Source: Nemertoderma westbladi
Lineage: Eukaryota > Animalia > Xenacoelomorpha
DNA: 64,000 bases
Assembly (NCBI GenBank): GCA_032718475.1
Contig: JAUCBJ010000852.1
Location: 18,907 to 82,906, forward strand
Reading direction: 5' to 3'
In this document: positions 31,631 to 35,095 of the stretch, in pieces
How positions within the stretch are numbered: the stretch's first letter is position 1
Layout: every line of letters begins with the position of its first letter
The notes under the pieces: model-generated
Seen by the model: only the letters and a program-made list of their open reading frames with translations
Told to the model about the DNA's origin: nothing
Database searches by the model: none
Position numbers and translations under genes: made by a program

Positions 31631-31746
31631 CTGGTTCCTTCCGAGCACTCATTGGCCAGCGCCCTGGCAACTAAAGTTTTACCAGTTCCGGGTGGGCCGT
31701 AGAATATACAACCGCGTGGCGGATCCATATCGAACGTGGTATAAAC
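31631..31746 (-). CDS. ATAD2: ATAD2-like exon (Walker A)
   Basis: CCAG|GTT...[46 protein letters not shown]; phase 0 to 2. Confidence 0.93.
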
Positions 31747-34700
31747 CTGGAGGAACGAATATATTAGTTAGAATAAACCTGGAGGAACGAATATATTAGT
31801 TAGAATAAACCTGGAGGAACGAATATATTAGTTAGAATAAACCTGGAGGAACGAATATATTAGTTAGAATAAACCTGGAGGAACGAATATATTAGTTAGA
31901 ATAAACCTGGAGGAACGAATATATTAGTTAGAATAAACCTGGAGGAACGAATATATTAGTTAGAATAAACCTGGAGGAACGAATATATTAGTTAGAATAA
32001 ACCTGGAGGAACGAATATATTAGTTAGAATAAACCTGGAGGAACGAATATATTAGTTAGAATAAACCTGGAGGAACGAATATATTAGTTAGAATAAACCT
32101 GGAGGAACGAATATATTAGTTAGAATAAACCTGGAGGAACGAATATATTAGTTAGAATAAACCTGGAGGAACGAATATATTAGTTAGAATAAACCTGGAG
32201 GAACGAATATATTAGTTAGAATAAACCTGGAGGAACGAATATATTAGTTAGAATAAACCTGGAGGAACGAATATATTAGTTAGAATAAACCTGGAGGAAC
32301 GAATATATTAGTTAGAATAAACCTGGAGGAACGAATATATTAGTTAGAATAAACCTGGAGGAACGAATATATTAGTTAGAATAAACCTGGAGGAACGAAT
32401 ATATTAGTTAGAATAAACCTGGAGGAACGAATATATTAGTTAGAATAAACCTGGAGGAACGAATATATTAGTTAGAATAAACCTGGAGGAACGAATATAT
32501 TAGTTAGAATAAACCTGGAGGAACGAATATATTAGTTAGAATAAACCTGGAGGAACGAATATATTAGTTAGAATAAACCTGGAGGAACGAATATATTAGT
32601 TAGAATAAACCTGGAGGAACGAATATATTAGTTAGAATAAACCTGGAGGAACGAATATATTAGTTAGAATAAACCTGGAGGAACGAATATATTAGTTAGA
32701 ATAAACCTGGAGGAACGAATATATTAGTTAGAATAAACCTGGAGGAACGAATATATTAGTTAGAATAAACCTGGAGGAACGAATATATTAGTTAGAATAA
32801 ACCTGGAGGAACGAATATATTAGTTAGAATAAACCTGGAGGAACGAATATATTAGTTAGAATAAACCTGGAGGAACGAATATATTAGTTAGAATAAACCT
32901 GGAGGAACGAATATATTAGTTAGAATAAACCTGGAGGAACGAATATATTAGTTAGAATAAACCTGGAGGAACGAATATATTAGTTAGAATAAACCTGGAG
33001 GAACGAATATATTAGTTAGAATAAACCTGGAGGAACGAATATATTAGTTAGAATAAACCTGGAGGAACGAATATATTAGTTAGAATAAACCTGGAGGAAC
33101 GAATATATTAGTTAGAATAAACCTGGAGGAACGAATATATTAGTTAGAATAAACCTGGAGGAACGAATATATTAGTTAGAATAAACCTGGAGGAACGAAT
33201 ATATTAGTTAGAATAAACCTGGAGGAACGAATATATTAGTTAGAATAAACCTGGAGGAACGAATATATTAGTTAGAATAAACCTGGAGGAACGAATATAT
33301 TAGTTAGAATAAACCTGGAGGAACGAATATATTAGTTAGAATAAACCTGGAGGAACGAATATATTAGTTAGAATAAACCTGGAGGAACGAATATATTAGT
33401 TAGAATAAACCTGGAGGAACGAATATATTAGTTAGAATAAACCTGGAGGAACGAATATATTAGTTAGAATAAACCTGGAGGAACGAATATATTAGTTAGA
33501 ATAAACCTGGAGGAACGAATATATTAGTTAGAATAAACCTGGAGGAACGAATATATTAGTTAGAATAAACCTGGAGGAACGAATATATTAGTTAGAATAA
33601 ACCTGGAGGAACGAATATATTAGTTAGAATAAACCTGGAGGAACGAATATATTAGTTAGAATAAACCTGGAGGAACGAATATATTAGTTAGAATAAACCT
33701 GGAGGAACGAATATATTAGTTAGAATAAACCTGGAGGAACGAATATATTAGTTAGAATAAACCTGGAGGAACGAATATATTAGTTAGAATAAACCTGGAG
33801 GAACGAATATATTAGTTAGAATAAACCTGGAGGAACGAATATATTAGTTAGAATAAACCTGGAGGAACGAATATATTAGTTAGAATAAACCTGGAGGAAC
33901 GAATATATTAGTTAGAATAAACCTGGAGGAACGAATATATTAGTTAGAATAAACCTGGAGGAACGAATATATTAGTTAGAATAAACCTGGAGGAACGAAT
34001 ATATTAGTTAGAATAAACCTGGAGGAACGAATATATTAGTTAGAATAAACCTGGAGGAACGAATATATTAGTTAGAATAAACCTGGAGGAACGAATATAT
34101 TAGTTAGAATAAACCTGGAGGAACGAATATATTAGTTAGAATAAACCTGGAGGAACGAATATATTAGTTAGAATAAACCTGGAGGAACGAATATATTAGT
34201 TAGAATAAACCTGGAGGAACGAATATATTAGTTAGAATAAACCTGGAGGAACGAATATATTAGTTAGAATAAACCTGGAGGAACGAATATATTAGTTAGA
34301 ATAAACCTGGAGGAACGAATATATTAGTTAGAATAAACCTGGAGGAACGAATATATTAGTTAGAATAAACCTGGAGGAACGAATATATTAGTTAGAATAA
34401 ACCTGGAGGAACGAATATATTAGTTAGAATAAACCTGGAGGAACGAATATATTAGTTAGAATAAACCTGGAGGAACGAATATATTAGTTAGAATAAACCT
34501 GGAGGAACGAATATATTAGTTAGAATAAACCTGGAGGAACGAATATATTAGTTAGAATAAACCTGGAGGAACGAATATATTAGTTAGAATAAACCTGGAG
34601 GAACGAATATATTAGTTAGAATAAACCTGGAGGAACGAATATATTAGTTAGAATAAACCTGGAGGAACGAATATATTAGTTAGAATAAACCTGGAGGAAC

Positions 34701-35095
34701 GAATATATTAGTTAGAATAAACCTGGAGGAACGAATATATTAGTTAGAATAAACCTGGAGGAACGAATATATTAGTTAGAATAAACCTGGAGGAACGAAT
34801 ATATTAGTTAGAATAAACCTGGAGGAACGAATATATTAGTTAGAATAAACCTGGAGGAACGAATATATTAGTTAGAATAAACCTGGAGGAACGAATATAT
34901 TAGTTAGAATAAACCTGGAGGAACGAATATATTAGTTAGAATAAACCTGGAGGAACGAATATATTAGTTAGAATAAACCTGGAGGAACGAATATATTAGT
35001 TAGAATAAACCTGGAGGAACGAATATATTAGTTAGAATAAACCTGGAGGAACGAATATATTAGTTAGAATAAACCTGGAGGAACGAATATATTAG
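31741..35095 (-). repeat. 32-bp homogeneous tandem array (~105 copies): branch point + pyrimidine tract + acceptor + first 6 exon nt
   Basis: Minus-strand unit TCTAACTAATATATTCGTTCCTCCAG|GTTTAT. Confidence 0.97.

Follow-up and report, generated by a model that had tools for sequence, protein, structure and literature searches.

The ATAD2 locus

The window, by which we mean the whole 64,000-nt stretch of Nemertoderma westbladi contig JAUCBJ010000852.1 that was analysed, carries an intact ATAD2 gene on its minus strand. The translation of exon A matches ATAD2 proteins (1,990 candidates gave 78 matches, the best with E 4e-30 and 48% identity over 90%), none of the annotated ones closely, and exons A-D align to the homologues in order. 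Joined together, six exons give 454 codons with 0 stops. In a tree of 35 rows, for which 34 of the 78 homologues were hand-picked for spread, the protein sits on a long, unplaced branch; sequence comparison assigns it to animal ATAD2, and the tree allows no finer placement.

Five of the eight sequencing runs listed contain the searched stretch (X1-X5), and the evidence from them takes the form of assembled contigs. X1 and X3, which are DNA-like, and X5, which is spliced, come from sample S1, the possible source sample; X2 comes from S2 and X4 from S3. X4 and X5 are listed as 'DNA?', and we took them as RNA because single contigs in these runs cover exons only and join them. The join between exons B and C is absent from X2 and X3; at 95% likeness, X3 shows a gap over these two exons (7 of 30 bins covered), to which we attach no meaning. 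In the lists and text below, a slash marks the splice site.

54077..54225, minus strand: probable further upstream exon, 149 nt, with its donor duplicated once; predicted from the frame open over six exons.
53742..53936, minus strand: upstream ATAD2 exon, 195 nt assuming use of its first donor; 3' end seen in X4, open frame, putative acceptor.
35176..35735, minus strand: exon A, 560 nt, ending ...Tyr-Pro-Glu at its donor; ATAD2 matches, and an X4 spliced contig covering 35174-35736.
31631..31746, minus strand: exon B, 116 nt, with Walker A and the strong donor CAG/GTAATT; joined to exon C in X4 and X5, donor making 10 of 11 pairs with U1.
31146..31311, minus strand: exon C, 166 nt, with Walker B; homologue alignment and spliced contigs.
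28220..28398, minus strand: exon D, 179 nt; homologue alignment and spliced contigs.

The intron between exons B and C is 319 nt long and is skipped in the contigs of X4 and X5. Exon A has a G+C content of 66%, compared to 43-53% in the other five exons. A search of positions 1-28200 with eight homologues found no ATAD2 exon after exon D; the X4 contig extends about 416 nt beyond exon D, and the following intron is longer than 28 kb. This intron contains a 7-kb minisatellite of 16-bp units (19601-26739), and several long open frames in window positions 1-28219, for example 16362-18746, 13344-14834 and 1538-2488, resemble the remains of mobile elements.

A 32-bp array of acceptors upstream of exon B

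The intron between exons A and B is occupied almost entirely by a tandem repeat that copies its own 3' end.

35170..35175, minus strand: GTAGGC, the 5' splice site of the intron that holds the array; junction in X4 and X5, 7 of 11 Watson-Crick pairs with U1.
35075..35175, minus strand: segment from the donor to the first acceptor, 101 nt (3429 = 101 + 104 x 32).
31741..35095, minus strand: 32-bp minisatellite, 104.8 copies, 100% identical; high unit depth in DNA runs X1, X2 and X3.
31747..31772, minus strand: last (105th) acceptor, the site in use; spliced contigs of X4 and X5.

The donor of this intron is GAG/GTAGGC on the minus strand, with its first intron base at 35175, and it is followed by 105 CAG/GTTTAT acceptors whose exon-side bases run from 35074 to 31746. 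All 104 spacings are exactly 32 nt, and Tandem Repeats Finder returned the array at period 32 with 100% matches; such regularity is far beyond chance. Each unit consists of the 6 exon bases GTTTAT and 26 intron-end bases comprising CTAAC/CTAAT, a pyrimidine tract and CAG. The preliminary description of this DNA had the array filling nearly the whole 3.4-kb intron, which the length of 3,429 nt bears out. It had also counted about 105 identical complete acceptors, with CTAAC/CTAAT in every unit and about 80 unique nt after the donor. The 105 sites at 32-bp spacing and the 80 nt of unique sequence stand, but only 104 units are identical and the distance from donor to first acceptor is 101 nt. Apart from GTTTAT, the first copy has just its last 21 intron bases in common with the others; it has CTAAT but lacks the preceding CTAAC. 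The 101-nt segment, complete with CTAAT, pyrimidine tract and CAG, likely represents the ancestral intron.

The rule that the acceptor is usually the first AG after the branch point, which the preliminary description had cited, is kept: each unit has its own branch-point motif and no AG between that motif and its acceptor. The expectation that upstream copies lead to a stop was borne out for acceptors 1, 2, 53 and 104, all of which reach one at the fifth codon past the junction, while acceptor 105 reads without one; these are five of the 105 sites, and copies 2-105 have the same upstream context. A coding role for the unit was not found, with stops in all three minus-strand frames of three units, and 14-mers of the unit occur nowhere else in the window.

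The array in genomic DNA

The 5' border, where the flank meets the first unit, is contained in DNA contigs of X1 and X2, and the 3' border, between the last unit and exon B, in a DNA contig of X2. In X2, the unit has a depth of about 4,400 against 21-26 for the flanks, a ratio of 168-206; in X3, from the possible source sample, the depths are about 2,370 and 36, and the ratio of 65-68 is below the 104 assembled. Such contig-depth ratios are rough rather than true copy numbers, and the unit may also lie elsewhere in the genome, so the difference between X3 and X2 is a hint that array length differs between samples. The DNA runs that show the array belong to S1 and S2; S3 is represented by the spliced run X4.

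That the locus could be an artefact, either an over-expanded assembly collapse or a pseudogene, might be suspected from the perfect identity of 104 units, from the lack of any listed contig spanning the whole array, and from the low ratio in the possible source sample. Against this, both borders are joined to unique flanks, in DNA runs from both S1 and S2 the unit is covered 65 to 200 times as deeply as its flanks, the six-exon frame is open throughout, and a correctly spliced product is seen. A large array is thus present in two samples (S1 and S2) and is not an invention of the assembly; the artefact reading, to which we give a negligible probability, is already refuted for both the existence of the array and pseudogene status.

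The acceptor used in the main mRNA

In X4 (S3, depth 921), exon A continues directly into exon B, and in both X4 and X5 (S1, depth 49) a single unbroken contig runs from exon B into exon A at 31748. The same two runs join exon B to exon C and, by way of its first donor, exon C to exon D. Both spliced runs, from two samples and two studies, therefore use the last acceptor, and the main mRNA product uses acceptor 105. For S1, the source of X5, DNA runs X1 and X3 show the array as well. As to outcome, this agrees with the earlier suggestion that the spliceosome passes over about 104 earlier sites. The possibility of a pseudogene, raised at the same time, falls with the correct joins of exon A to the last acceptor in the two spliced contigs. 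Contigs drop rare forms and the mature mRNA is the same by either route, direct or stepwise, which leaves X4 and X5 blind to leakage and to route.

Other repeats in the gene

Three further repeats touch splice junctions of the gene.

28481..31181, minus strand: 46-bp donor-side minisatellite, 58.7 copies, 50 with an intact CAG/GTGAGT, first donor used; ends of X4 and X5 contigs at 31145 continue into exon D.
51445..53812, minus strand: 76-bp donor-side minisatellite, 31.2 copies, 29 with ATG/GTTAGT, at the 3' end of the exon preceding exon A; the X4 end at 35736 is joined to the end of that exon.
54028-54092, minus strand: 34-bp x 2 repeat duplicating the donor of the probable further upstream exon; read from the sequence.

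For the 76-bp array, X4 shows the end of the exon and not which copy supplies the donor. We reduced 36 rows to 25 distinct arrays of period at least 15 by merging nested rows and dropping a TA tract and one 10-bp repeat. Four of the 25 span one of the 12 ATAD2 junctions, against 0.26 expected, and three of 24 do so when the 32-bp array itself is removed (P about 0.002). In a single window that was chosen for such an array, and with one of the exons predicted, these counts hint that repeats favour ATAD2 splice junctions. They bear on the open question of how repeats are seeded at splice junctions, for which the mechanism is called unclear in an excerpt of the amphioxus work (PMC3087553).

A 44-bp array of 140 copies (44875-51024) lies inside the 18-kb intron and not at a junction, and a 9-mer of its unit is also found at 36501 and 42299, at the apparent ends of a dispersed repeat; arrays here therefore also seed away from splice sites. 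At the edge of the window (55411-64000), a 40-bp array of at least 215 copies, 99% identical, continues past the window end. Read along the minus strand, the array stops right in front of a consensus-like GTAAGT near 55408; it may be one more boundary array, belonging to an exon further upstream.

Relation to known boundary-spanning repeats

In amphioxus, tandem repeats termed 'mirages' span exon-intron boundaries of Adh3, globins, troponin C and PGBD5 and are reported to leave splicing undisturbed (PMC3087553, PMC3902484). Their units measure 10-160 bp and carry splice signals in 'many, but not all' cases (PMC3087553). The ATAD2 array has a unit of minisatellite size with splice signals (32 bp, 105 CAG acceptors) that spans the boundary by 26 intron-end and 6 exon bases, the boundary being confirmed by spliced contigs. 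It yields a regular mRNA from the authentic site in 2 of 2 spliced runs, in whose contigs rare forms are invisible, and its 104 identical units with a divergent border unit reproduce the concerted-evolution pattern of mirages. As described in the excerpts, Adh3, BflGb6, BflGb9, troponin C and PGBD5 resemble it in their boundary-spanning tandem unit and normal mRNA, in having a border unit outside homogenisation, and in that both 5' and 3' boundaries are hit within one gene set. BflGb6 lies, like the 32-bp array, on the acceptor side, but is described there with 3-6 units at 81-100% identity as compared to 105 sites and 104 identical units in ATAD2. The ATAD2 array further differs from the amphioxus mirages in that only 6 exon bases are copied. 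Somatic instability has been reported for the Adh3 mirage. The ATAD2 array is a large example of this described type of repeat, the mirage minisatellite, and we hold the assignment to be almost certain. Neither this repeat type nor the donor-side arrays of the gene figured in the preliminary description.

Human genes offer smaller counterparts. In CBS 844ins68 an intron-end/exon-start junction is duplicated, with a strong preference for the distal site and a normal mRNA (PMC2630376); it has two sites 68 bp apart rather than 105. On the donor side, VNTRs in F7 intron 7, IFI6 (6-16), CBS intron 13, LMNB2 and PDGF also span the boundary, and the site touching the exon wins (PMC1557585, in excerpt). 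These are a direct match for the 46-bp array of ATAD2, and differ from its 32-bp array in being donor-sided, in having 5-26 units and in that some leak to the nearest pseudo-sites; for IFI6 and CBS intron 13, two such pseudo-sites are described in the same excerpt. Duplicated gamma-globin sites gave mixed results, the proximal copy being spliced in two studies and the opposite found in a third, as summarised there (PMC1557585). The 32-bp unit has no G-run, unlike CBS 844ins68. Site selection in the latter is tied to G-runs and hnRNP H.

Recursive splicing as a proposed alternative

In all 105 acceptors the AG is directly followed by GT, as in the ratchet points of Drosophila and mammals and in the dual-specificity array of human UBC, where by the excerpts a donor can in principle be regenerated (PMC8605326, PMC6224609, PMC10809524). 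The preliminary description had accordingly offered a stepwise alternative, by which joining of exon A to an early copy re-creates the donor GAG/GTTTATTC (GAG/GTTTAT) and the rest of the array is then traversed in further splices. It had rightly called this donor weak, and every sequence test goes against the ratchet. Taking pairing with the 5' end of U1 as a stand-in for donor strength, the regenerated donor makes 5 of 11 Watson-Crick pairs (-4.2 kcal/mol), whereas the six true donors of the gene make 7-10 of 11 (-6.8 to -12.2 kcal/mol). This is the level of the background, in which 46% of 669 GT sites have at least 5 pairs. The finished junction of exons A and B retains the same 9-mer (-3..+6) in the mRNA and pairs one base more (6), so that a working ratchet would not stop there but would excise exon B as well. 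An exon junction complex could block re-splicing at the finished junction (PMC6224609, in excerpt), a block that would be expected to hit the ratchet intermediates too.

Comparison with known ratchet points leads in the same direction. As a rule, their donors exceed that of the exon itself in strength, and inclusion results when they are weakened (PMC8605326); here the order is the reverse, with 5 pairs for the regenerated donor and 10 for that of exon B. Without its array the ATAD2 intron would be short, and the site is young and repeated rather than a conserved single point. As for a short cryptic exon with a downstream donor of its own behind each point, the sole donor-like sequence within the array is the CAG/GTTTAT of the following unit (6 pairs), and exon B's donor is within exon distance of the last few units only. 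The GT itself is accounted for by coding sequence, because Val follows Pro-Glu in 53 of the 78 homologues (Ile in 10, Leu in 2, and the pattern not matched in 13), and mirage arrays with no need of AG/GT are reported to splice normally. Two points speak for stepwise removal. The first acceptor forms a complete short-intron end and is transcribed 3.3 kb earlier than the last; and in human UBC a tandem array of AGGT sites undergoes splicing, although there the sites lie in coding repeats and keep the frame (PMC10809524). On sequence grounds the ratchet interpretation is unsupported, and as the main route we regard it as highly improbable.

A variant would be a self-resetting ladder, in which fast splicing to the first acceptor, at 101 nt, is rescued by repeated re-splicing at GAG/GTTTAT until the donor of exon B is reached. 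We consider this quite unlikely. If true, it would make the array an acceptor mirage with a GT-starting exon that is tolerated because of recursive splicing, and a case of recursive splicing made in one step by a young minisatellite. In the literature searched, with most subscription journals outside its scope, no proposal was found that a ratchet removes a mirage. The 46-bp unit of the donor-side array ends in AAACAG/GTGAGT, and use of its internal AG as an acceptor would regenerate the donor of exon C exactly (9 of 11 U1 pairs); on donor strength it is a better ratchet candidate than the 32-bp array, but it has no pyrimidine tract.

Probable direct splicing and possible leakage

We consider it likely that the complete account is that of an ATAD2 mirage minisatellite whose last acceptor is used in one direct splice. 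The array would have begun when 28 bp, taking in the intron end and six exon bases, were duplicated along with a 4-bp CTAA stutter, as the first copy compared to the unit suggests, and the unit would subsequently have been amplified and homogenised. Exon definition across the 116-nt exon B may then select acceptor 105, the only one to precede a full exon with a strong donor 116 nt on, which makes a single direct splice the likely route. Splices to earlier copies carry a stop and would likely be destroyed by nonsense-mediated decay, and the array itself is presumably without function. A single rule, by which splicing takes the site adjoining the whole exon, accounts for acceptor- and donor-side arrays without a ratchet. 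The gene provides an internal control in the intron next but one, where the first, exon-touching donor is used in preference to 50 strong, intact duplicates.

Counting against the direct route is the first acceptor, a complete site at a distance of only 101 nt from the donor, whose transcription precedes that of acceptor 105 by 3.3 kb. Such a site is well suited to the fast splicing of short introns. The proximal splicing of duplicated gamma-globin sites in two of the three studies and the leaking arrays of IFI6 and CBS intron 13 (PMC1557585) also weigh against it. A leaky array is a further reading, in which direct splicing dominates while a sizeable share goes to early or near-last copies and is lost to decay or re-spliced. 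Besides the intact 101-nt intron end, it is favoured by the ordinary sizes of the exons that near-last copies would yield (148, 180 and 212 nt), by the leakage of human donor arrays described in the excerpt (PMC1557585), by the stop at codon 5 that would hide early-copy products (for the acceptors tested), and by the depth ratios that hint at length differences between samples. Set against it are the absence of internal junctions from the X4 and X5 contigs, a weak point as contigs drop rare forms, the lancelet mirages, reported without aberrant mRNA in the excerpted text (PMC3902484), and the tolerance of the gene for three large arrays. We judge sizeable leakage unlikely; were it to occur, copy number would tune the output of ATAD2.

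With direct splicing to acceptor 105 as the preferred reading, the locus is a natural experiment on acceptor choice, having 104 letter-identical sites in an intact, conserved gene and donor-side mirror arrays in the same transcript. As the sites are letter-identical and the last one is used, local acceptor sequence alone cannot select the site here. RNA structure was considered as a selector and rejected. Folding of 288 nt of the array gave -35.8 kcal/mol (z -1.8), with 8 of 200 shuffles as good and a nearly open centroid, and the last acceptor is not predicted to be more open than the others, the unpaired fraction of the branch region being 0.29 at the last acceptor, 0.38 in mid-array and 0.72 at the first. 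Every 32-bp unit contains the palindrome AATATATT, through which pairing between units would be possible within this weak fold.
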